Origin: Rhizaria sp. SCN 62-66
Taxonomy: Eukaryota
Assembly (NCBI GenBank): GCA_001724265.1
Contig: MEDY01000025.1
Coordinates: forward strand, 1-64,000
Direction: 5' to 3'
Length of the DNA: 64,000 nucleotides
This document shows, piece after piece, positions 8,434-60,630 of this stretch. Within the stretch, counting starts at the first letter, position 1. Each line of letters begins with the position of its first letter. The notes below the pieces were generated by a model, which saw nothing but the letters and a program-made list of their open reading frames with translations, did not search any database and was not told the DNA's origin. The position numbers and the translations under genes were made by a program.

Positions 8434-8838
8434 TTACGCGGTCTCCTCCTCGGTGGACTCCTTGGCCTTGCGGTTGCCGGCCTTGGCGAAACGGAGGTTG
8501 CGGAGGAACTTGGGCTCAACACTGCACGGAGCAAGAGAGAGGTGGGTGGTGGATGGGTGCGGGCGCGGGAGAAAAGAGCGCACAAAGAGGACAGAGGGGG
8601 GGGGGGGGGGGGGGGGGGGGGGGAAGAGCACATATTGGTGAGCAAGGAGGTCAGCAAGAGCGTGGTACAGGTGGCATAGCGTTAGATGAAGATCGCGAGG
8701 CGTAGCGGAGAATGGGAGGAGAAAGAGATGGACGTACCCCTTGAGCGAGGTGTAGCGCTCCTGCTTCGGCTTCTTGATGCCAGTGCGGTAAGCCTTGGCG
8801 TTCTTGTTGTGGGCGGTGGTGTTCTTGCGCTTGGCCAT
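8434..8838 (-). CDS. RPL29: 60S ribosomal protein eL29. Exons 8838-8738 and 8521-8434
   Basis: MAKRKNTTAHNKNAKAYRTGIKKPKQERYTSLKG|VEPKFLRNLRFAKAGN. A GTACGT...CAG intron at 8737-8522 restores the canonical eL29 sequence. Stop TAA. Confidence 0.95.
   Translation of the reverse strand: MAKRKNTTAHNKNAKAYRTGIKKPKQERYTSLKGYVHLFLLPFSATPRDLHLTLCHLYHALADLLAHQYVLFPPPPPPPPPSVLFVRSFLPRPHPSTTHLSLAPCSVEPKFLRNLRFAKAGNRKAKESTEEETA
8596..8623 (+). repeat. G28 homopolymer inside the RPL29 intron
   Basis: Directly visible. The exact length may be unreliable in the assembly. Confidence 0.8.
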
Positions 8839-9580
8839 TGAGAACTGCGGAGGACGCAAACAAAGCGGGACGGGAAAGAGAGGAGCAGAGAGAGCGGGAG
8901 GTGAGAAGAGAAGGGCGGCGGTCGGGCGGTGTCGGTCGGGGCAAGTCAGTCTTCGGACGGCCTACGCGGCAGTCCTGTGCGCGACAAAAGCGGCGTGGGC
9001 AGCAATCGCAACATAATACCTAATAACAAAGCGGGCAAACACGTCTATTAGTTATATCCTAGTTCCTGAGTATCGGTCGCAGGACCCAGAAAGGATCGCT
9101 TTCTCGTCGCCCCAGCCACTTTCCCCGCAAAAAGGCTCAGCCCCCCGCGACTTAACTTTCTTGACTGGCGGCCCAAAGCAATTCTCTTTTTCCAGAACCG
9201 GCCGGCAGGCCGACTGCCAACCTTGTTCCCTACGAAAAAAAGTGCCCACTCAAAATGAGAGTGTATCTATGTCAAGAAACCGTTAATTAGAAATCCAGGA
9301 GTACTCAACGAGAGAAGACGTGCGGATTAACTAGTTCTTTAAATTAACACTCTTCAAGTGGACATATACGTTGTTAAGTTTGTCCTGCAGTCTCACCTTC
9401 ATCACACACCCCTTTTCCCTTGCTTCATCGCGCCACCTTTCTGTATCTGGCTCGGTCTAAACATTTTTAAATTCGACTCTCTTTTGAATATAGTAGATTT
9501 TAGTTTCATCACATTCTTGTGACGATACTACTTTTTCTTAACAGCTCCTAGATTGCTTGTAAACGCACGCCATTTATTCG

Positions 9581-9678: not shown

Positions 9679-10583
9679 ATGCAAGATCCTCAGCTTCGAC
9701 AGAAGTAGGTACGTTATTATTTCCGTCCCAGCTTTGTTTTGTTCTCTCATCTCTCAACTGATTCCTAAGTGAAGCTGCTTGAAGACTTGACATCCCTACT
9801 CTTTTATTGAGCTCATGTGTTTGCCAGCTTTGTTTTGACATATTACAACTGTAGATGCTGATCAACCGCGTTGCAGCATCCGCCGAGCGACTGAACTTTA
9901 CACTTGCAGCTATCAACAACGAGGTTGCCGTACGTACTCATAAGTCAAACAGAGTTCAATAATAAGCGAACATCAAACATGACGAGCTAAAAGAACACTT
10001 GTTGATGCTACAACTGATGACTGAGCGACTTGCGTTCATTTTATGCTAAGAATACTCCACATGTGACAAGAAATGCGACTAATAACTCATGACACACGAC
10101 GACACTTAATCGCAACTCTCCAACACCCACACTCGCCATCAGTCTGACTTGTCTCTTACGCCGTCTTTTATTCCTTTCATTCTCTCCGCATAGGCACTCG
10201 CTGCGCACCCCGCGACGGGTGCCGGTGCCGCTGCGGGCGCCGTCTGGCGCGGCTACAGCAAGAGAGTCGCGGCCGCGCTCTCGGCGCTGCCACCGCCGGT
10301 GGCCTCCGAGGCCGCCGCCGCCAACGCCGCCGCGGCCGCGGCCGCCGCTGAGGCCACCAACGCCGAGGCCGAGGCCGAGCAGAGGCTGCGGGCGGCCGAG
10401 GCGGCCCGCTTCCGCTCGCTGCGCACGGCTGCCGCGGCGGCGGCGGCGGAGGCTGAGGCCGAGGCCGAGGCTGAGGCGGGGGCTGGCAAGGCGGCCAGCG
10501 GCCGGGGCCGCAAAAGCACACTGTATAACCCTACGGTAGCGTCCAAGAGCAGGGCCGCGTCGCGCTCGCGCACGCGCGCGTGA
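9679..10583 (+). CDS. DAD4: DASH/Dam1 kinetochore complex subunit, Dad4/Dad1-like. Exons 9679-9708, 9855-9929 and 10194-10583, with an in-frame TAG at codon 10
   Basis: Spliced translation MQDPQLRQK*|MLINRVAASAERLNFTLAAINNEVA|ALAAH..GAVWRGYSKRVAAALSA aligns by eye, with no gap over the first ~34 residues, to the Dad4 pattern MENP....Q..I/LL.RI..NV.RLNES...LN.EL...(W/C)..Y...V...L. Both introns are GTACGT...TAG, phase 0. Stop TGA. Confidence 0.7.
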
Positions 10584-11431: not shown

Positions 11432-14400
11432 ATGTCGCACCATCGTCCGATCAACTCACACAAGCAGCAGGAGCAGCAGGGCCAGCGCCACCAACAGCAG
11501 GGGCAGCAGCAGTACTCTTAGCAGCACCAGCTAGGGCGACAACAACAGCAGCTCTTGTTTTCCCACAGCAGCACTCGCTTACACGCCGATGCTCGCGCAA
11601 GCAACTCTGCGACTGCGCCTGCAACTACTGACGCCGATGCGGATGCCGCCGCGGCTGTGACGGCGGCTGCGATGCAAGCGTCGCTCTCTCGCATTGCCGC
11701 AGCCCTCGCTCACACAACAACATACGCGCCACCTGCCCCTGCCCCTGCCCCTACCCCCGCTGCCCCTCCTGCTGCCTCCGTGGCCGCCGCGCTAGCCGCC
11801 GCCGTCGCCGCCGCCGCCGCGCCCTTGTCTGCCACGTCATCCACCTCCGCAGCGTCCCAGTCTGCTGCGGCGCTGCTGACTGCGGTGCGCTCTGCCCAGG
11901 CCGCCGCGGCCGCCAACAGGCTGAGGGCCTGGCTCCGGGCCGCGACGGCCGCCGCGGTCGCCGAGGCCGAGGCCGCCGCCGCGGAGGCCAAGGCCAAGGC
12001 TGAGGCCGAGGCTGCCGCCAGTAACAATCATAACAGCGAGGGGGACGACGACGACGACGAATATGAAAGCGGCCTAACTTTGCTGCCGGGCTTCCGGCGG
12101 CTGAGCACCCCTTTCGGCCTCAGTGCTTCGGCGCTGGCGGCGGCGAAAGGCGGCGCCGGGAGCGGCTTAGCTTACCTGCTGCCCTCGCAACGGCGCCTGT
12201 TATCACTAGCGCAGGCGCAGGCGCTGGAGCGGGCCGATGCCGCCAAGGCCGCCCGGGAGGCGGCCGAGGCGGAGGCGGGGGCGGCGGCGGTCGCGGCGGC
12301 GGTTGCGGAGGCCAAGGCCGAGGCCGAGGCCGAGGCGGGGGTCGTTACTACTGATGGCCCTTCACATGTGAGTGCTGTCAAGCCTAAGACTGAGGCTGAG
12401 ACGAAGGCCAAAGCCAAGGCCAAGTTGTTGTCTCTGAGCAGCAGCAGCGACAGCGACACCAGCAGCACCAGCAGCAGCAGCAGCAGCGACAGCAGCGACA
12501 GCAGCGACAGCGACTCAAGCTCCAGCTCTAGCTCTAGCTCTAGCTCCAGTTCTAGCAGTAGCGACACTGACACTGACAGCAGCAGCAGCAGCAGTGACAG
12601 CGAGAGTGATGCTGAGGCGAGCAGTAGGTTTGAGCACAAGACCAAGCGTTTCTGTCCCTTGCCAAGCAAACCAGTGACGGCGGCACTCACTGCTGCCAAG
12701 GCCAAAGCGAAGACTGTGTTCAAGGCGAAAGATAAGCCGCGTGACATGGAAGTTAGGCCGCGTCTGTCCGAGCGCTTTTTGCCGACAACACGTGCGCACA
12801 TGGTACTGCTGCTGCAACAACAGCAACATCAGGACGAGCTCCAGCAGCAGCAGGGATTGCTCGGCCACTGCCACGTCTGCTTACAGTCCTTTGCGGCCTG
12901 CGCGCAGTCGCTCGCACTCGCCGCCGCCGCGGCCGCCGCAGCCGCTGCTGCTGCTGCTGCCGCCAATGGCCCGCAGCCGCAATTGCAGCCGCAGCCAGAG
13001 GTGCCGGAGCCGTGCGTGCAGGCGCTGCACTCGCGGTCGCGGTGGGCGCAGGCGCAAGCACGGCTGGTGCTAAGGCTGGGGCCGCTCAAGGCGAAGAAAC
13101 AGCAACTGCAACAGCAGTTGCAGCAGCGGAGTGACTGTGATGTGAGCAAGAGCGATAACAGTGTCCATGACAGTAACAATGACACTGATGCTGCTGCTGC
13201 TGGCTCTGCATCTGTTGTTTCTTTTGATGTAAGTTCCCCTGACCCTGACTCGGGCTTCGCTTACCGCCCCCGCGGCACTGTCGTCACGCTCAAGAAGGCA
13301 CTTCCATCAGGACGCGACGCCCTTACACCAACTGCAGCAACAAACACTGCTGCTACGACTGCTGTGCCCGCACCTGCTGCTCCAGCGATGACTGACCCTG
13401 ACTCCAGTACTTCGGCTGCTGCTGCTGCTGCCGCTGCGGCGGCGGCGGCGGCGGCGACTGATCCTAACGAGCTCTTCCTGCGGTCGCTGTCTGAGCGCCA
13501 CGGCCCCGTGTGTGTGGCCGCCGCCTGGGCCCAACTGGACGCGGCGGTGGGCGATCCCGCCAGGAGGGCCGCGCTCTCGGGGGCACTTACACGGCTAAGT
13601 ACCCGGGCCCCGGGCGCCGACGGGACGCCGCAGTGGTTTTACTCTCGGCAAATGCGGACTCCCATCGGCACGCAGTCCATCCGTCCTCAGTACTCGCAGT
13701 CACGGGCACGGTCACATTCGCAGCCTCAGCCTCAACAGCAAGAGCTTGAGTCTGTTGAGCCTGAGGCTGAGCAGGAGCAAGAGCAGGAGCAGGAGCAGGA
13801 GCGATACTGGGCCTACTCGGCCAACATCGACTACAGCAACACAACTGCCATCGCCAGCGCTACCGCCGCGGACGCGGGCGCAGCCGCTACCGCCGCGGAC
13901 GCGGGCGCAGCCGCTGCCGCCGCCCCTGCTTTGCAGCTGCAGTCAGCCCAGTGGCAGCTTCAGTCCCAGTCCCAGTCGCAGTCCCAGTCCCAGTCTCAGT
14001 CCCAGTCCCAGTCCCAGTCGTTTTTCACCGCTGTGCGCGGCTGCCGCAGCGACGAGCGGCGCCTCTGCGAGTGGGCTAAGGGGATACTTACACATGGGGT
14101 ACCGGCGCAAAATGCGCTCACACAACTCAGCACGACTGCGACCGACAGCTGCAGCAACAGTAATCGTGACGCCAGGGATGCTGCGACTGCCAGTGCGAAT
14201 GCTGCTGCGAATCCTGCTGCCAATGTCACTGCTAGGGCCAATGCTCGTGTGAGTTCCAATGCCAATGCGCGTTCGAGTGCTGCCAATGATCGCCGTTTCC
14301 CCACGTGCCCCTTCGTGCCCCCGCCCTTTCCCAGGCAGGGACTTGCGGCTGCGTCTAAGGGGCACTTAGACGGCGCTGACCGGGGGTACTTAGACGCGTC

Positions 14401-16358
14401 TAAGTGGGGCAGCGAGTGGGCCCGTGATATGTGGGCTCTGGCACCACAACCACCGCAGTTGACACCAGCAACAGCAACAGCAGCAGACACCGCGGCAACA
14501 GAAGCTCGTGTTTTTTCCACTCCCATGGGTGATGATGATGGCGACAGAGATGTGACCAATCGTAGCACTGCTCCTGTCGTCGACGCTGCAAACGCAGATT
14601 CTAGCGCAAGGACGAGCGCGAGTGGGGGTGACGCGCCGTCCTCTGAGCTCATCGAAGCCTTCTACGCCTCCGTCACCGCCCCCGCCCCCGTCGCATTCGT
14701 CCCGGCCACCGCGTATGTAAGTATCCCTGACCGTCTGAGTGCCCCGGCTCGCGACAGCGCCGGCGACAACGGGAGTGATGGCTGCAGCAGCAGTGGCGGA
14801 GACTGGGGCAGCGAGAGCGAGAGCGACGACGAGAGTGCCAGCGCCAGCGCCAGCGCCAGTGCCAGCGCCAGTGAAAGCGAGAGCGAGATTGCTATCTGTT
14901 TTGATACTAGTGGCATTAACGCAGAGTCCGATACCGATACCGAGACTGTGACTGTGCGCTCTCCCAGCTGCACGCGCTTTGCCTCAGCGGGCCCTCTGTT
15001 GCGCATCAAACAACTCAAGCAGAAACTCGAGCGATCAGCCCCCACAGCAACAGCTGCAACGGCTGCGACGACGGCGGCGACAGCACCGACTGCAACTGCG
15101 ACTCAAGAGCTAGAGCTGGAGCCAGTGCTGCTGCAGCCGCAAACGGCCTCAGACTCCGACTCCGAAGCCGACTCTGAGTCTCCATCGCGGTCGCAGCCTC
15201 ACTCCCAGTCTCAGCCCGCCCGCGTGTTGCTGGGCCAGGGCCCGTGGCCGGCGACCTACGGCAGCGTCCCGGGCGCCGCCCGCGCCGCGCCCGTGGCCGT
15301 GCTGAGGGCCACCCACCACGCCTGGGGCGCCGCGCGCGGCCGCAGGGTCAGGACCCGGGCCGCGGCGTCGGCGCTGCTGCTGCGACTGCAGCAACAGCTG
15401 GGACAGCACCAACAGCAGCAGCCGCAGTCGCATTTTCAGCAGCGGCAACAGCAGCAGCAGCAGCGGTTATTGCAGTCGCGTGTGCAGGCATTGCGGTCGC
15501 GGTTGCTGTCGCAGTCGCTCGAGGCCCAAGTGCTGACTATCACCAGCCAAAACAACGCGAGCATGGGCTACGGCGCAACCGCAGGCAATTACGCCTCTGA
15601 TGCTTTCAATACTGGTCATGTTACCGGTAGTATGATGAGCCCCAATAGCACTCACATGAGCGATAACGGCGCGCTTCCCAGCTCTGTGTCGACCAACAAC
15701 AGCAACTCCAACGCAACTCCCACGCACGTAACTGCCAATCTCAACAACAGCAGCAGTAGTGGCTCAACTGCTTTGAGCAGTAGCAGCGCTAGTCAAATTA
15801 ACAGCAGCAGCAGCGGCAGTGGCGGCGGCGGCCACCAGGGCGGCCGCCGCAGCCGCGCGCTGCCGACGCTGACGTCCATCAGCGCCCTCTCCCATCTCAC
15901 AGTTACGACTACCGCCACCGGCGCCGCGCTGCCCGCGGGGGCGGCCGCCGGCGCTGGCGCGGGCGCAGGGGCCGCAGGTGGCGGCGGCGGCGGCGGGGGG
16001 GCGACTGGGGGGGTGCTGACGTTTCCTGAGCTGCTGCTGCTGCAGCATCCTAAGCTGGCGCCGCCGCCGCCGCCGGCCGCGTTGTCTCCGCAGCAACAAC
16101 AGCAGCAGCTCCAGCAGTGGCTGCAACTGTGGCAGCAGCAGGCGAGCCCTACCAGCAGCGTCTCCGGCCACAGCCTTAGCAGCCTCAATGGCCTCAGCCT
16201 CGGCAGCGGCGGCAGCAGCAGCGGCGGCAGCAGCGGCGGCGGCGACTGCTTTGACGAAGACGATAACAACGATAACGATACTGAGAGTGACGGCGAGAAC
16301 GCCGGCGCCCGCACGCCCACCAACGCCGGCACGAGCACCAACATCAACGCTAATGCCC

Positions 16359-16402
<44 letters not shown>

Positions 16403-17501
16403 GGCTCTGGCGGCCGCGGCTATCCGAGCACGGCCACTGCCCCGATCATCAACACGACGCACTACCTCACTGCCCTCAACGCCGTCAACGCGAGCTCGAG
16501 CATTAGCAACAACAGCAGCAGCAGCGCGAGCGATAGTAACGCTGGCTCTGGCTCTAGCTCTGGCTCCGGCGCTAGCAGTGGCAGTGGCAGTGGCAGTGCG
16601 ATGGCGCTAAGTGCAGGGTTCGCGAGCTTCGTGACGAGCACGAGCAGTAGCGAGCTGCAGCAGCTACAGCGGCGCATCTGCTTCCGACGCTCGCTGATTC
16701 ACGACTGGGGCGTCTTCGCGCTTGAGGCGATCCCCCCCGCTTCCTTCATAGTCGAGTACCTCGGCGAGTACCTCCGCAAGCCCGTCGCGGACATCCGCGA
16801 GAAGCGCTACCAGGTACGGGATTACGAATTCAATTGACTTTTGAGAATGTATATATTGATATAATGAATCAAAATGCACATCAATCGTGTAATTTACTGC
16901 TTTCTATATTATACTATAATTAAATCTCTCATCACCCCGGTATACCCCTATTTTGTATCTGTTTAATCACTAATCACCGAAGGCGGCCGGTGTGGACAGC
17001 TCGTACCTGTTCGCAATCGACGGCTGGAGCGGCTGGGGCGGCTTTGGCGGCGGCGGACGCCTCGACAGCGGCGGCGGCTGGGTCATCGACGCGACCGTGC
17101 GCGGCAACATTGCGCGCTTCATCAACCACTCGTGCGCGCCTAACTGCAACGCGTTCGTGGTCCAGACCGGCGGCCGGCCGCGCATCGTCATTTGCTCCAC
17201 TAGGTATGCACTCAAACAATGGATGGCTGCTTGGCGATAATAATATGTGACTATTAACATGAATTTGTGTCACAACATGCGCACATAAGTTTAGTGTATT
17301 ATTCTTAAGTTTTGTCGCGATCGGTCAATATCTTGCTCACTATATCTCACGTTTCATGTACCACATTGCTGTTTCTTTGCTATTGCGCGTAGGGCGATTG
17401 CGAAAGGCGAAGAGATCGTGTACGACTACCAGTTCGAGAGCGAGGAGGAGAAGATTCCGTGTCGCTGTGGCGCCAGCACCTGCCGTGGCACTCTCAACTA
17501 A
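11432..17501 (+). CDS. SET1: SET1/COMPASS-type histone H3K4 methyltransferase. Exons 11432(?)-16813, 16983-17203 and 17393-17501
   Basis: C-terminal SET domain [17 protein letters not shown]...[55 protein letters not shown].|..[10 protein letters not shown] plus post-[19 protein letters not shown]. Start is uncertain: ATG 11432 needs TAG readthrough at 11519, otherwise ATG 11672. Confidence 0.85.
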
Positions 17502-20994: not shown

Positions 20995-23091
20995 ATGGCC
21001 AAGAGCCGGTTCGAGTATGTCAAGGAGTTCGAGCAGGACGACAAGCTGCTGCCCGAGTGCTGGATCGTCGTCCGCGTCGACGGCAAGCAGTTCAGGCCGT
21101 ACGTTCCCCGCGCAAGACACGGGATTTCACCGCATATATCACCTCCAATCAAACAAATGTTTGGCTTCGCGGGTTCATCGATGTGTTTTTTGTTATGACG
21201 TATTAATTTTTTACACATGCTCATATTCTTTCTCAGAACCATGCTTCTACTTGACAACACACATCTCACTCCTTTCTCTCTGCGCTCTCTGTCCCCCTCT
21301 GTTGCCTCCTCGCTGGCCGCAGCTTCACCGACGCGCACGGTTACCTGAAGCCCGTGGACGACCGCGGCACGAAGCTGATGAACCGGTGCGCTGCCGAAGT
21401 GATGCGGCAGTGTCCCGACGTCATCCTCGCGCTCGGGGCCAGCGACTAGTTCTCGTTTGTGCTCAAACGGTCCTCCGTGCTCTTCTCGCGCCGCGCGGGC
21501 AAGATCGCGACGTTTCTGGCCTCAGCGTTTACAGCCGCATTTGTCTACCTCTGGCCGCAGTACTTCGGGCCCCGCTCGGCGCGGCTGTGCGCTGAATACC
21601 ACTCTGCCGGGTCGATCACTGGCAAACTGGGCAAGCTGGCTGCGCCGGGGAGAGACAAAGCGGCAGAGCGAGTCAAAGCTGTGGCGAGTGATGACATCAG
21701 TGGCGAGGGCGATTTCGCGGGCTGTACTGAAGCATCTGCAGCTGATGCGACTCCGACGGCAGCGGAGGCTAAGGCTGAGGCTGTGGCAGCTGCTGCAGCG
21801 GCAGAGGAGGAGGAAGAGGCAGCTGTGTCCGCCGCCGCGGCCCGGGCCGCCAGGAGGGCCCAGCCAAGCGACAACGGCTCTGTGTCCACGACGAGGCCCT
21901 GCCGCGCGCTGCCCGCCGCCGCCGCGAAGCGCCTTGTTTCCGCCGCCGCCGCTGTGGCAGCCGCGAACAACGTCAAGTCAACCGACGACTTGAACAACAA
22001 CAGTGCTGCTGCTGCTGCTGCTGCTGTTCCGAGTGCGGCCCGCCCGCTCTCCCTGCCCGCGCTGACGGACTTGCGGGGCACGCGCCTGCGCTTTCCCGCG
22101 CCGAGCTTCGACGGGCGCGCCGTCTGCTACCCCACCGACCGCGCGCTAAGGGACTACCTGTCCTGGCGGCAGGCCGACTGTACGTCCCGATGGCGCTACT
22201 TAGAATGAATACCACACTCCTTCTTATAACTGCTCTTTATTCAATCCCGATGTAATACTTCTATTTTTTTCTGGAAAAATATATATATTTATGTCCTTTT
22301 GTTGCAATGATGCGATGCCATATTCTATCTTCATAACTCTCTCCTCACCTTGTCGCTTTCTTTCCATTGGCTTGTACGTACGCTTTGACTCCGCTCTTGC
22401 ACATGTGAACTTCTCGTCTTGCCACCACTCAGACCACATCAACACAATGTACAACACGGCCTTCTGGGCGCTGGTCCAGCTCAAGGGCCTCTCCCCGCGC
22501 GCCGCTGAGCAAACGTTGACCCCGACCAACAGCGAGGGGAAGCACGAGGTGCTGTTCTCACTGGGGATCAACTACGCGAAGCTGCCGGCCGTCTACCGCA
22601 AGGGCTCGCTGCTCATCTGGTCGGACGACAACAAAACCAGCACTGGCAGCGTTAAGGCGAGTCACGGCAATGGCAGCGGCAGCGCGACGCAGTTGAACGC
22701 CCTGAACGCGACTGCCGGCGGTGGCGAGTCGAACGCTGCTGCTGCTGCTGCGGCTACTGATGGTGGTGGTGGTGGTGGTGGCAGCGGTAAGCTGAGTGCA
22801 GCTGCTGCTGACGCGGACGCCGACTGCGAGGGCGAAGGCTGGGGCTGGAGCGACGCTGAGTGCGATCTCGACGCGTACGGGCAGGAGATCAGCTCCAGTG
22901 TAAGTACCCCCTTAGACGCCGGCAAGCAGCAGGGCCAGCAGCACCAGCAGCAGCAGCACTTAGACGATGTAAGTGCGACTGTAAAGCGCCCTCGCCACGC
23001 CAACAATCACAATAACAACGGCGACAGCAACGACGGCGACGACGACGACGACGCAAGCCTCACCAGCTCAAGCCACGCGAACCTGAACCTG

Positions 23092-23128
<37 letters not shown>

Positions 23129-23424
23129 GCAGCAGCAGCAGCATGAATGCGGCTGCGAGTGCCGGTGCGCCGCGCAAAGTGAAGCGCGGCCGCCGGCAGA
23201 TCGTGGTGCTGCACTGCGACTTGATCGGCGACGCCTTTTGGCAGCAGCGGCCGTGGTTGCTGCCGTATGTGTCGCCCAAAGACAGGGCCAAGGCCGAGTA
23301 CAAGGACCGGAAAAAGAAGGAAAAGGGCGCTACTAACGCTGCTGCCGCTACCGCGCAACAGCAGCAGCAACAGCAGCAAGGGCAGGACAGTGATCGTGAG
23401 ACTAGCGTTGCACACTGCCTCTAA
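20995..23424 (+). CDS. THG1: tRNA(His) guanylyltransferase Thg1 (~650 aa). Exons 20995-21098, 21323-22179 and 22433-23424, with an in-frame TAG at codon 77
   Basis: [28 protein letters not shown]...[75 protein letters not shown]. Both introns are GTACGT...CAG. Stop TAA. Confidence 0.93.
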
Positions 23425-25261: not shown

Positions 25262-26241
25262 CTGCGGCGTGAAAGTGCATTGTAGCGGGAAAATATTAAT
25301 AAGATAAGCATGTAAGCTTGAAGTTTTACTTGGGCAAACGCCCTTCAATTGCAAGCCACGATGCAGAATTGTCTACAAGCAACCAGCTAATATCTTGACC
25401 TGGGCGCGTGTGGCCAAAAGTGGACGGGAAAACAGCATAAATCCATTTTATTGTATTTCATATTGTGACTTTACCAAAATTATCATATGAATAAGATGAG
25501 CGGCTGTGACTTCTATTAGAAATCACTACTCCATTTGCTTAAATCTTCTTTTAGTGTGAGATACATATGATTTTGCGGTTTGACCACGGTTACAAGCTTC
25601 TAACGGACAGCCGGGTCGCGAGGTGGTCGCCGCAAGTTTGAATTAGCACCAAACATAATCCATCAAAACCGCGGACTCATAAGCCCAGACAATGATATTT
25701 GTGTAGTATATGATGTATTGTTTCTATTTCTTTCTGTCCACACTCTCCCAAACGGTCTCTTGCCGTTCTATCCTTTTCCTTCTGTCACGTGTCTCGCCAC
25801 ATCTTTCTCGTCACCTTCTCTTTGTTTCCATCCCTGCACTTTACAAGCAACGTTGACGGAACTTTAACCCTTGAATTCACGATTTTCATGCTTTATCCTG
25901 GTCATCAATCTGCTTCGTATTTCACTCACTCTTGCGCTTCCCCGCTTTCTATCCCCTCGTCTTCGTCGTCACCCCCCGCAGTCAAGCTCCCCAACCAACT
26001 CACTTGTGTATCTCCCGAGAGCTTCTCCCCGCTCCCTACGCACACTTGTAACCCCTGTTGTCTGCCTTTCACCAGCTACAACACCTCCCATAACCCTCAC
26101 ATCTTTACAGTCGAGCATTAAACTCCTCTGTTGTTGAACCCTTCCCTTCCGTTAGCTAGCTGGTCGTCCCGCGTTTGCGCTCCCTCTCTTTCACAGCCCC
26201 AGTCTCCCACCCTCCACCAGTACCAGCACCCTCCGCACACC

Positions 26242-28720: not shown

Positions 28721-30190
28721 TCACCCGCGCGCGAAGCTGCCGGTACCGTTAGCGGCCTCCGCGGCCGCCGCGGCCGCCGCGGCCTCGCCTGCGCGCGAGT
28801 ACTCACTCGGATCCGTGAAGCCCGACTGGTACTGGATCTGGAGCATGGCCATGCGGCGCACGCGCCAGAGCAGGTAGCCGACGCCGACGAGCAGGATTGC
28901 GAGGAAGACGAAGACGACGGCGAGCGCGGCGCAGGTCCCGTCGCAGCTGGTGCCGCCGCCAACGTTGTACACGTCGGCCGAGGCGGACTGGGACACGCAG
29001 CGCGGGCCGTGCCACCTGTCGTGGCAGAAGCACCGGCTGGCCTTGAGGTCCGTGTCGTAGGAACAAATGCCGTTGCCGCCGCAGGGGCCATCGCCGCTCG
29101 TGAGGCCGCGCGCAAAGGCAGATTTGACGGAGTTCTTCTGTGCAGTCTCAGCAGTCTCAGTCTCAGTCTCAGTGTTGCTGTTGTTGTTGTTGATTTCACT
29201 CGCAGTGCTGAAGGGGTTGTTCACAACGGCGGAGGTGACGGAGGTACTTACACACTGTAAGGGGCAGGCGGCCGGGTGGTTGAACGTGGCCCTGTAGTTG
29301 CACTCGGTCGCCTCATCCACCCGCACCACGCCAGCGTCGGCCGCGCTCGAGCAGAGAAAGCGGACAGTGAAGCTGTACTTATCGAGCCCGCAGGTGGCGC
29401 CCGTGGGGTAGTATAAGTCCAGCCCGCCGCTGGGGTCGCTCGGGTTCACCAGGGACAGCTGCGGAGGCCGCGCAATGCGTGAGGCGTGAAAGCGAAGGAA
29501 ACGACAGCGGAGAAAGATAAAAAAGACAAAAGACGAGGTATAGACGTGAGTTTAAGACGTGATAAGATGTTTTTCAAGTAAAATATTTAAAAAGCATAAG
29601 AGACTTGAATATCACATAAAAGTTTTAAAACAGTCCTGAATCACGGAGATATATCTTTGGGAACGTACGGAAGTCTTGGGGTCGTTGTGCTTGCCGAGCG
29701 CGTGACACATGCCGACGGCCTTGATGAGCGAATAGGCGCCGGCCGTCTCGACGTCGCAGAGGTTGTCGGGCCGGATAGTGGCGCCGCAGACGTTGAAGTA
29801 GTACGTCTAGTTGAGCAGCGAGGGGTCGACGACAGTGTAGGACTGCCAGTCGGGCCTGCTGAGGGCGGACAGGTCGTAGCTCGTGCCCGAGGCCTTGCTC
29901 GTGAAGGTGCACTTGGACGTGTCCCACTCGTCGTCCGCCGCCGCGGCTTCCAAGTGCAGAGCCGTGAGCGCAGCGGGTGCGGGCACGGGGGACGCTGCAG
30001 CGCCGCGCGCAGAAGGCGCAGGCGCGGTGCGGGCGAGATCGGACGCGGCGCGCGACGCGGGGGGGGGCACAGCAGCGACGGCATGGGCGAGGGAGCTAAC
30101 GCTGGCGAGCACGAGCGAGAGAGCGAGGGCCAGCAGCGCGGGGCGCCGGCCGCCGCGGAAACACGGAGCGGGGGCGGCGAGGGGCGTCAT
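28721..30190 (-). CDS. Type I membrane protein with a mannose-6-phosphate receptor homology (MRH/ATG27-like) domain, an EGF-like domain and a TM helix. Exons 30190-29669 and 29458-28721, with an in-frame TAG at codon 128
   Basis: Signal peptide, then C.F.....YDLSAL..YTVVD...N*TYYFNVCG...C...C.ALG..|..GLDLYY..G.TC...FTVRFLC..E..ECNY...F.HPAACP, then CGGNGIC......CFC...W.GPRC and a hydrophobic TM helix. GTACGT...CAG phase-0 intron, stop TGA. Confidence 0.85.
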
Positions 30191-43507: not shown

Positions 43508-43781
43508 AAACGCCAGCCAACAGCGAGGCCGGCGAGCGTGATTTATTCAGAGGTGTTTGCTCGCATAATATACCTACAAAAGCGAGTGTTATTCTTTGAA
43601 TTAGAAGTTATGCTAATAGTTATATTTAGCTGTTTGTGCTAAATTTGCGTAGAAGTTGTCATTTGTACTGAACTATCCCTCGTCGTTTCGCCTCTCGTCT
43701 AACGCTCATTCCACACTTCCGCGACACCCCTTTCCGTTCTTCCGTGCTTTACGAACAGCGCAACGCCACCCCTCGTGCACG

Positions 43782-45939
43782 ATGGCCGAGTCGCGTAACC
43801 AAGATCTCGCCAATGGCGGTCCTATCGCCGACAACTACTACAAGCTCCTCGGTGTTGCCAAGACCGTACGTGCCTTTCCCTCCCTCCCCAGCCCCACCCC
43901 CGCACACTCCACTTCGCCGCCCATTGCTCACTCAGATACCGACCATCGCCCTCTTTTTTCTTGCTCCCGCGCTACGCAGTCAACCGAGACGGAGATCCGT
44001 GACACTTTTCACCGCCTCGCGGTCGAGTACCACCCCGATCGCTCCGGCTCCGAGGTCGACCACAACACCGCCATCTTCTCCAAGCTCTCCCAGGTACGCA
44101 TCGCTAAAACAACCACGTTGAAGCGCTTTATGCGAGCACTGCACGAGTTAACTTTGTTCTATTGAACTAATTGGGATTTTGTATAACTCCCATTAGTTTT
44201 AGGTGATTATGTGACTGTCTTCACTGCCTGTATCAAGTTTCAATAACCTCGTCCTCACACACACTGCTCCCAACCCGCTTTGCTCTCCTCGCTTCGTTTC
44301 GCACTTGATCCCGCCTCAGGCCTACTCCGTCCTCTCGGACCCCATCTCCCGCTCGCTCTACGACATTGCGCAGGGCTACACCGAGGACACCCCCGAGACC
44401 CGCCGCCGCATCAACCACCTGAAGCGCGTCCAGGCTGAGGTGCGTCGACACTCCCCCTCTCGCGAAACCTCCATTAATGCACTAAATTGCACTGTTGAAC
44501 CGATGTATCGTTAAAACATGAGTTTAAAGTCTTGAAATAAGCCTGTAATAAGTTCTTACATTTGTCTATACTCTTTTTGTTTTTCTACGTGTGCATATCC
44601 CCCCGCAATCTCGCGTCCCCAGGCCCAGAACGAGCACTTCGAGCGCCTCGTCCCCGAGGCCCGCGCCGAGGAGGCCGCCACCGACGGCCTCATCATCATC
44701 GAGGCCCTCTACGGCGACGTCTCTGTTGACAACGACACCTCTGCGCGCTCGGGCACCTCCGCCGCGGGCCGCTGCATTGACGTCACGGCTGCGCTCCAGT
44801 GCCTCACGAAGTCCTCGATCCTCTTCCTCCACGGCGGTACGCTTATGTTCACCTTAAAACGCACTGTTTTATGCCTTGAAGAGTCTTGAAACAAACAATC
44901 TTATCTTCTAAATGCATCAATTGGAATTATCTAATTTGAGTTTATATCATCACAAAATTCATGTGTACGCTTGCTCACTTGTAACGCTTTCTATCTTTGT
45001 TGTTGTTTTTGTGACTGTTGCACCACAGGCGGCAGCAAGTCTTGGCTGGAGGGTTTCTACGACCCGAACGAGGACCAGCTGGACAACATGCTGTACATCC
45101 GCTACCGCTTCAACAACGACATGCACGAGTGCCTGTACAGCGACCTCTCCGAAATCTGCCTCCCCGCCGCTGAGCACCTCATCCAGGACTCCAGCAGCGG
45201 CGCCGCCGACGCCGACGAGAGCGAGTACTACTCCGAGGACGAGGATAGCGGCCGCGGCGGCGACGACAGCGAGGGCGGCTTGACTTCCGGCGACTCGATG
45301 CGTACCCCGCCCCGCCACGGCCGTCGCGTCAACAACGCTGCGACGACCCCCAACAGCAGCAGCAGCAACAACCGCCGCCGCCGCCACCGCAGCAGCATGG
45401 CGGGCGGCCTGCGCAGCTCCGTCCGCGTGAAGCCGCGCGCGCAGGTTCAGCAGGAGGAGGTACGGATACAAACGCTCTATATCGCGTTTTTGGAGACATA
45501 TATCGCCTGCTGTGAGAAGAAAAACTTGTTCAAACGTTAAAATTATTATGATTGATATTATAATTACATTTTTTGAATCCACGCTCACGTTTATGCTGTT
45601 AAATCCTTGCTTTTTGCGTCTGTGTCCTAGGCCGCCCTCAAGGCCGGCCGCCGCCGCAAGCTCTACCTCTCGCTGGCGACTGTCGCCATCAGTGGCGGCG
45701 TCTACTACGCCAGCAAGGAGAAGCTCATCACGCTGCCCACGGTCTCCGAGGCCGTCTCGGCGCTCAAGCTCGACAAGGCTGTCAATGCAATGTTCTCTTT
45801 CTTCCGCTCCTTTGGCGCTGGCTCTTCGGTCAACGCAACGGCCGGCGGCAACGGCAGCGACGTGCCTGCGGGCAACGGCGCCGCCGCGGCCATCGGCAGC
45901 AGCTCCACGGCCGCGATGCTCGGCGAGGAGGCTTACTAA
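43782..45939 (+). CDS. J-domain protein with a DNAJC11 C-terminal (DUF3395-type) domain, ~423 aa. Exons 43782-43865, 43980-44093, 44320-44439, 44623-44836, 45029-45459 and 45631-45939
   Basis: J domain NYYKLLGV..EIR..F.RLA.EYHPDR..F..LSQAYSVLSDP.SR.LYD, then GLIIIEALYG..IDVTAALQCL..SKSWLEGFYDP...LYIRYRF...HE. Five GT-AG introns keep the frame. Stop TAA. Confidence 0.85.
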
Positions 45940-47095: not shown

Positions 47096-47167
47096 GCGCT
47101 ATTGGTCTAGTGGTTATGATTGATCGTTGCCAACGATTAGAGCCGTGTTCGATTCACGGATAGCGCA
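47096..47167 (+). tRNA. tRNA-Gly(GCC)
   Basis: Acceptor stem GCGCTAT/ATAGCGC plus discriminator A, D-arm TGGTCTAGTGG, anticodon arm GATCG-TTGCCAA-CGATT, T-arm CCGTG-TTCGATT-CACGG. Confidence 0.95.
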
Positions 47168-47169
47168 CC

Positions 47170-59655: not shown

Positions 59656-60630
59656 CGGCCTCGGCCTCCGTCTCGGCCGCGGGGGGCGCCCATTCGTCCC
59701 CCACGCCAAGCCCGCGCCGCACCAGGCTCCACAGCCTGTGCTCCAACGCCGCCGGCAGCGACAGCACCGGCAGAGGCAGCGCGCCCGCCAAAGCCCCCCC
59801 GCCGCCGCTGCCCCCAGAGCTCTTGTTGTAGTTCGCGCCGCTCTTAGGGTGACTGTGGGCGGAGTCCTGGGAAGTGACAAAATGGAGTATAAAGCGGGGA
59901 TAGTGTAAGTATAAAAAAATGGTTCATTTAAAAATAGCAATTAATTATTGGTTAATGCATTATAGAGCTATAGTGATATTTCTCTTCCACTGAGCGCGAT
60001 ATATGCCGTCAAATGCGTGTTTTGGCTCTTACTTACCTTGGGCCTGATGCTCGCGGGCAGACGGAGCGCCACCGGCACTGGCCGGGCCGGCAGAGTGAAT
60101 GCCGAAGCACCTGCAGTGTGTGTCGTCGTCGTCGTCGTCGCAGCGGTGGGAGTGGCAGAACCATCACCGGCGGCGGCGGCATCAGCAGCAGCAGCAGCAG
60201 TAGTGATTTTATTGTTTGCATTGTTGTTGCTGTTTCTACTAGGGTTAGTTTGTGCTGCAACGCCCAAGGCAGCTGCCGTTAACACAATGCCACGCTTGTT
60301 AGCCTTCCGTTGAAAGCCGCCGCCGCCGCCGCCGCCGCCGCTGTTGCTGCTGTTGCTGCTGCTGCTAGGACCTTTCGTGGTAGCGGTAGCAGTAGCAGTA
60401 GCAGTAGCCGCAGTTGCAGTTGCAGGAGCGGTAATAGTAGCTGTCGCGCTGTTGTTGGCGCTAGCATTAGCACTGTTAGCAGTTGCAACAGTGGCATCAG
60501 CAGCGTTGGCAGAAGCACTGGCAGTGGCTATGGCGGCAGCGGCGGCGGCGGCTGCTGCCGAGGCGCCGGGGGCAGTCATGCCGGGCTGGAAGCCGCGCAA
60601 AAGCGGGGCTTTGTTGTTGCGCTTGCTCAT
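47417..60630 (-). CDS. Giant DEAH/RHA-family RNA helicase (DHX29/36/57-like), ~4287 aa. Exons 60630-60037, 59866-56175 and 55994-47417
   Basis: AETGSGKTT, QPRRITA, VGYSVRFD, YCTNGILLRRL, DEVHER, MSAT, PGRTYPV, LIFLPG, STNIAETGVT, QQRAGRAGR, CYRLF and HA2 LTSLGRVAAALPL. The three ORFs join in frame through GTAAGT..CAG (phase 0) and GTACGT..CAG (phase 2) introns. Stop TAA. Confidence 0.87.

Follow-up and report, generated by a model that had tools for sequence, protein, structure and literature searches.

The gene for the tRNA-His guanylyltransferase THG1 in the first 64,000 nucleotides of contig MEDY01000025.1, from the assembly GCA_001724265.1 of Rhizaria sp. SCN 62-66, carries an in-frame TAG triplet at the codon of a catalytic glutamate. 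This whole stretch of DNA is called the window in the following. With moderate confidence we propose that UAG is a rare sense codon for glutamate in this organism, and that UAA and UGA remain stop codons. The finding of a second in-frame TAG in a conserved domain, together with the lack of TAG terminators in the window, turns what might have been the oddity of a single site into a probable genome-wide change of the code. A sense meaning of UAG fits the data better than pseudogenes, since the TAG replaces a near-invariant glutamate in an otherwise conserved gene, a second TAG occurs, corresponding cases of TAA or TGA were not found, and no gene model ends in TAG.

The in-frame TAG of the THG1 gene

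The THG1 gene extends from position 20995 to 23424 of the forward strand and comprises three exons with 650 codons, followed by the stop codon TAA at 23422-23424. Exon 1 (20995-21098) starts with M1 and ends within the codon of P35, after its second base; it includes the catalytic aspartate D29 and is matched by the Thg1 profile of Pfam (PF04446, profile positions 1-28, E value 1.2e-9, 38.7 bits at a cut-off of 29.2). An AT-rich intron of 224 nucleotides (21099-21322, GTACGT...CAG) separates it from exon 2 (21323-22179), which contains the palm-domain motifs, an alanine-rich insertion of about 170 amino acids and then the sequence FDGR...YLSWRQAD. The same profile matches exon 2 with its positions 31-115 (E value 8.8e-25, 87.6 bits). 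For the second intron (22180-22432, 253 nucleotides, GTACGT...CAG) we inferred the exact junction, since the canonical one yields a tyrosine where relatives mostly have a cysteine. Exon 3 (22433-23421) encodes the Thg1C domain (PF14413, E value 9.5e-22, 77.9 bits at a cut-off of 26.3) as well as long low-complexity insertions. With both Pfam domains above their gathering scores the gene belongs to the Thg1 family. The first-pass annotation had numbered the spliced protein as D29, S75, D76 and TAG77, which agrees with this three-exon gene model, and it had asked for an alignment to the family profile: the match on exon 2 runs across the TAG and lies above the gathering score.

The insertion between the palm motifs and FDGR is rich in alanine and glutamate (21590-22085, forward strand), and those of the carboxy-terminal part consist of asparagine, glutamine, glycine and aspartate (22640-23160, forward strand). 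Low-complexity tracts of this kind are found in most large proteins of the window, and public assemblies break at such repeats.

The TAG itself occupies positions 21447-21449 of the forward strand, where the third catalytic carboxylate of the SDE motif would be encoded. Read directly, the codons around it are GGG GCC AGC GAC TAG TTC TCG TTT GTG CTC, which corresponds to GASD(TAG)FSFVL. In a phmmer search against the PDB the TAG was aligned, without any gap, to the glutamate of GQSDEYSF in human THG1L (3otb, chain residue 77), as the annotation had claimed, and the corresponding glutamate of yeast Thg1 (5xox) also stood opposite the TAG. Residues D29, D76 and E77 are described as the conserved catalytic carboxylates of Thg1, superimposable on D475, D654 and E655 of T7 DNA polymerase (PMC6471195, PMC3245924). 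In the protein of the window D29 and D76 are present, and the set is complete only if TAG stands for glutamate.

Homologues were collected with HMMER from 1.84 billion representative proteins, which yielded 630 matches at an E value of at most 1e-3. Columns were counted in the best 150 of these matches without the window's own fragment (P0003), that is in 149 sequences. Opposite the TAG, 147 of the 149 have glutamate and two have lysine; glutamine, leucine, tryptophan, tyrosine and serine do not occur there in any of them. The earlier judgement that glutamate is favoured, and that leucine or tryptophan fits poorly, is in line with these counts. Conservation among the homologues reached 90% or more in 49 columns, and the window protein has the consensus residue in 48 of them, the TAG being the sole mismatch. 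All eight conserved columns of exon 1 are kept, and so are all 30 downstream of the TAG, so that the motifs behind it are intact, as had been noticed from the sequence. The closest relative among the matches listed is a metagenome protein from ENA (P0029) with 71% identity over the aligned part, which reads GASDEFSF where the window has GASD(TAG)FSF. This protein was translated through an intron which lies at the position of THG1 intron 1 and has the identical junction, CC followed by GTACGT. A word-index search for relatives of exon 2 returned the window's own fragment only, and no match to THG1 peptides was obtained in JGI metagenome contigs.

Compared with eukaryotic Thg1 proteins of known structure (human THG1L 3otb, yeast 5xox, Candida 3wbz), the window protein shares both Pfam domains, D29, S75, D76 and all other conserved columns. 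It differs in the TAG at codon 77, in the alanine-rich insertion and in the long insertions near the carboxy terminus. As judged from the alignments, glutamate is the only residue compatible with column 77, and it is probably the residue inserted at UAG, as this one informative site suggests.

It was also of concern whether the triplet is present in the DNA at all, as reads with GAG had been named as what would overturn the annotation. Four runs contained a share of 0.72 or more of the sampled words and were therefore counted as containing the stretch; contigs of three of them were compared with the window. Logan contigs of runs X2 and X3 span positions 21306-21747, and a contig of run X4 spans 21121-21532. 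In all of them the TAG is kept and the number of differences from the window is zero; for position 21447 only the letter of the window is listed. Contigs from two studies hence carry TAG and not GAG. Although runs X2 and X3 are assigned to separate studies and years, their contigs and depths are identical, which suggests a double filing of a single data set; because of their identical figures they were counted as one. Run X4 has a study and year of its own, and its mismatches at eight other listed positions mark it as a different strain. In the strain of runs X4 and X6 the substitution C>A at position 22874 changes an alanine to glutamate in the low-complexity part of THG1, and C>T at position 23289 is synonymous; the TAG is kept in this strain. 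Run X6 is a poly(A) metatranscriptome, the contigs of which cover 21902-22122 and 22795-23010 only, the latter within exon 3. A JGI contig of 2,752 nucleotides which was found via U2A' (L001) ends inside THG1 intron 1; being identical with the window, it adds no new sequence. Its length equals that of the X2/X3 contig covering 20900-21291. Protein collections contain THG1 fragments which begin just past the TAG, namely P0003 on one contig and P0166 on three contigs. The metagenomes in which the stretch occurs derive from bioreactors, wastewater, activated sludge and microbial fuel cells and date from 2015-2025.

Further in-frame TAGs and the terminators of the window

A second in-frame TAG was exposed when open reading frames were translated with TAG as X. 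It is located in a receptor-like gene of the reverse strand (28721-30190, ATG at 30190), which encodes a signal peptide, an MRH/CIMR domain, an EGF-like region, a transmembrane segment and a short tail. Exon 1 (30190-29669) carries the TAG as codon 128 (29809-29807), between VVDPSLLN and TYYFNVCG; with longer flanks the protein reads KCTFTSKASGTSYDLSALSRPDWQSYTVVDPSLLN before the TAG and TYYFNVCGATIRPDNLCD after it. A canonical intron (29668-29459, GTACGT...CAG) is followed by exon 2 (29458-28724) with the second half of the MRH domain, the EGF-like region, the transmembrane segment and the tail, and by the stop codon TGA at 28723-28721. The Pfam profile CIMR (PF00878) crosses the TAG with an E value of 1.3e-7, and to its left as well as to its right the protein can be aligned to PDB entries with repeats of the cation-independent mannose-6-phosphate receptor (CI-MPR). 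An amino-terminal fragment of 127 amino acids (P0167), found on four contigs, ends exactly at this TAG. In a word-index search for relatives of the MRH gene among proteins of 95-305 amino acids only this fragment of the window itself was recovered.

A possible third in-frame TAG is located at 11519-11521 of the forward strand. It is codon 30 from the first ATG (11432) of a gene which contains SET and post-SET domains in its exons and comprises about 1,900 codons (11432-17501, forward strand): a long open reading frame ends near 16818, at the 5' splice site GTACGG, and is followed by two short exons, with TAA at 17499. The 50 codons from the TAG to the next ATG of this frame, at 11672, score as coding in this frame alone, with a value of 10.1 compared with 3.7 and -11.2 in the other two frames, which contain stops. 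In-frame UAG in conserved domains was thus found in two unrelated genes, THG1 and the MRH gene, with two to three sites in total, a small sample.

For a control, a codon-usage score was derived from 13,313 trusted codons, and with it each TAG, TAA and TGA of either strand of the window was examined. Two TAGs, those of THG1 and of the MRH gene, had coding potential on both sides in the same strand and frame, and not a single TAA or TGA had it. Several further TAG candidates were discarded: those at 10191 and 45628 are YAG 3' splice sites and not coding, the one at 59970 is intronic, those at 25375 and 43323 are part of upstream sequence that is rich in AT, and all remaining ones are antisense to longer genes. 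The removal of the TAGs by tiny introns was likewise rejected. The only spans of the form GT...TAG are 27-30 nucleotides long, in contrast to the 160-265 nucleotides of the recognised introns, and their excision would cost THG1 its D76 or the MRH domain its core.

The terminators of the 17 gene models are TAA in ten cases and TGA in seven. None is TAG, which in this small sample would have a chance of 0.8^17, or about 0.02, if TAG made up 20% of the terminators.

The window, which is eukaryotic, has GC-rich coding sequence, with a GC content at third codon positions (GC3) of about 0.7-0.9, and intergenic and intron sequence that is rich in AT. The introns have the 5' sites GTACGT, GTACGG, GTACGC or GTAAGT, and a pyrimidine tract precedes the acceptor, either CAG or TAG. 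Besides those of THG1 (21099-21322 and 22180-22432) and the MRH gene (29668-29459, reverse strand), introns were placed at 9930-10193, 18757-18526 (reverse strand), 45468-45630 and 60037-59868 (reverse strand). In the largest genes, with 1,800-2,900 codons, the long open reading frames are not interrupted by introns, and the organism is intron-poor. A DNAJC11-like gene with DnaJ and DnaJ-like C11 C-terminal domains (43653-45939, forward strand) is the most intron-rich of the window with at least five exons. The gene for the ribosomal protein eL29 (8437-8961, reverse strand) has chain Lb of 9i1w as its best match in the PDB (E value 1.2e-15, the next match having 2.2e-10). In the search listing this entry is linked to a paper on the ribosome of Chaetomium thermophilum, which is insufficient to place the organism. 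A plant-like proteasome chain (7qve) was another of the best PDB matches, an atlas search with U2A' led to generic clusters of eukaryotes only, and these comparisons yielded no close relative with a name.

Alternative explanations

The strongest competitor of a sense UAG, which we regard as rather unlikely, is the standard code, both TAGs being nonsense mutations that became fixed. In that case we would see recent pseudogenes or null alleles in THG1 and the MRH gene, and a second copy, or a HisRS which does not need G-1, might make their loss tolerable. Some eukaryotes reportedly live without Thg1. Several observations weigh against a sense UAG, and part of them speak for this explanation. TAG is very rare in frame, being absent from six large open reading frames delimited solely by TAA or TGA with 9,414 codons in total; in established variant codes the reassigned codon is normally far commoner. 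Owing to the GC3-rich codon usage, nonsense mutations are biased towards TAG: in the 13,313 codons TAG has 1,740 sense neighbours at one mutational step, TAA 753 and TGA 777. TAG is thus the target of about 53% of such mutations, and two of them would both be TAG by chance with a probability of about 0.28. No components for decoding UAG were seen in the window, where the sole tRNA gene is one for tRNA-Gly(GCC) (47096-47169, forward strand), no tRNA with the anticodon CUA is present and a scan against Rfam gave no RNA family at gathering score. Seventeen terminators are few, and several of the gene models derive from open reading frames and coding potential alone. The contigs with the fragment proteins may stem from overlapping samples. 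The RNA contigs of run X6 reach neither the TAG of THG1 nor its introns and are therefore uninformative on editing, splicing and read-through. Finally, the TAG of the MRH gene stands opposite variable residues of the CI-MPR repeats (tyrosine, glutamate, lysine and arginine), so that THG1 alone tells which amino acid is inserted, and the third TAG sits in a glutamine-rich tract and is uninformative on the residue.

Against nonsense alleles stands the pattern as a whole. Two, perhaps three, genes within 64 kb have an in-frame TAG and no other lesion. In THG1 the conserved columns after the TAG are without exception intact, and the triplet is common to a strain which differs elsewhere, with no alternative letter at 21447. 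The control scan gave no in-frame case of TAA or TGA, and TAG terminators are lacking in all 17 gene models.

A second alternative, which appears doubtful, is that UAG is a sense codon genome-wide and is read as a residue other than glutamate, for instance glutamine or leucine. THG1 would then either work with the substituted residue 77 or be inactivated by it. The MRH site is compatible with several residues, and the possible third TAG lies within a CAG-rich glutamine tract. In its favour are also the described codes in which UAG alone is reassigned and UAA remains a stop, as all those listed in PMC11687900 give glutamine, leucine or serine. By December 2024 these were leucine in the uncultured rhizarian exLh and in phyllopharyngean metagenome-assembled genomes, glutamine in Iotanema spirale, Protocruzia, Hartmannula and Trochilia, and serine in Scotinosphaera (PMC11687900). 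The window resembles them in having in-frame UAG in conserved genes and in using UAA and UGA as terminators (10 TAA, 7 TGA). It differs in that its one informative site points to glutamate, a residue that is missing from their list, in a far lower usage of UAG, and in being GC-rich and not ciliate-like, with introns of 160-265 nucleotides. Glutamine, leucine and serine are each absent from column 77 of the 149 sequences taken from the best matches, and the closest relative among the matches listed has glutamate. Residue 77 is moreover one of the three conserved catalytic carboxylates (PMC6471195, PMC3245924), and the rest of THG1 shows no sign of relaxed constraint.

Site-specific recoding under the standard code is considered improbable to a still higher degree. 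It would consist either in programmed read-through by near-cognate tRNAs or in adenosine-to-inosine editing of UAG to UGG, read as tryptophan, as in filamentous ascomycetes. Both processes exist in eukaryotes, and UAG is a preferred triplet of the fungal editing. The best PDB match of eL29, a ribosome chain of Chaetomium thermophilum (9i1w, an entry identified from the search listing), may be taken in its favour. Yet no close named relative among fungi emerged: the best named matches of U2A' are 38-40% identical and the best unnamed one is 62% identical. Tryptophan, glutamine and tyrosine never occur at column 77 in the best homologues and lysine does so in two of 149; with tryptophan or one of the usual near-cognate residues in this place the catalytic carboxylate would be lost. 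No read-through motif is common to the three TAGs (GAC TAG TTC, AAC TAG ACG and TCT TAG CAG), and recoding leaves the lack of TAG terminators unexplained.

An error of sequencing or assembly with GAG as the true codon is effectively refuted by the Logan contigs of two studies, which carry TAG with zero differences, and by the open reading frames predicted to begin just past the TAG on one and three contigs, and nothing was found in its favour.

Machinery for pyrrolysine is archaeal or bacterial, and in a general scan of the 64-kb window no pylT, pylS or pylBCD was among the Pfam hits. A Thg1-family gene which is split by an in-frame UAG is known from Methanosarcina acetivorans, where the triplet is translated through. 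Its Thg1-like protein has pyrrolysine at O142, which corresponds to T159 of the human protein and belongs to a dispensable peptide, 16 Å away from the catalytic metal (PMC6471195, PMC3245924). In the window the UAG affects the catalytic Glu77 of a spliced eukaryotic gene. The pyrrolysine of the Methanosarcina enzyme, which the annotation had mentioned while seeing no support for pyrrolysine machinery, occupies another position.

A proposed variant code and its meaning

Under the favoured reading, UAG as glutamate and UAA and UGA as stops, UAG would no longer act as a terminator and would be used as a rare sense codon, about two to three times in some 17,000 codons. The TAG at codon 77 of THG1 would be a synonymous replacement of GAG, and the gene would yield a full-length tRNA-His guanylyltransferase of 650 residues with the complete metal-binding triad D29, D76 and E77. 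A peptide covering codon 77 would then contain ALGASDEFSFVLK. By analogy with other reassignments of UAG, the codon may be decoded by a tRNA-Glu with the anticodon CUA, and the release factor eRF1 may be one which does not recognise UAG.

The meaning of UAG as glutamate as such has precedents in peritrich ciliates (table 30), in Blastocrithidia (table 31) and in a ciliate with UAA as lysine (PMC11687900, PMC12153298). The organism of the window would share this meaning with them if our reading holds. In those codes UAA is a sense codon as well, whereas in the window UAA ends ten of the 17 gene models and never occurs in frame; a membership of the NCBI tables 30 and 31 fails on this point. In the literature searched, with subscription journals and supplements outside its scope, no report was found of UAG as glutamate with UAA as a stop, or of such a code in eukaryotes of sludge. 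We see an about even chance that the window belongs to an undescribed nuclear code in which UAG means glutamate and UAA and UGA are the sole stops, with about one to two in-frame UAGs per 10,000 codons and no UAG terminators. Reassignment would be seen here at an early point, or close to an "unassigned-then-captured" state, in an uncultured wastewater eukaryote that is rich in GC and not a ciliate.

UAA and UAG nearly always change their meaning jointly. The few codes which split the two give UAG as glutamine, leucine or serine according to PMC11687900, and UAG as glutamate with UAA and UGA as stops would, if true, be a new case among them. The low usage could then show codon capture at an early point, with the terminators purged and the first sense uses arising from GAG-to-TAG changes. 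Gene calling with the standard code splits or discards genes of this organism, and THG1 and the MRH gene are indeed present as fragments in the searched protein collections. As only glutamate at position 77 of THG1 is expected to give an active enzyme, this site would provide a clean functional read-out of the residue that is inserted at UAG.

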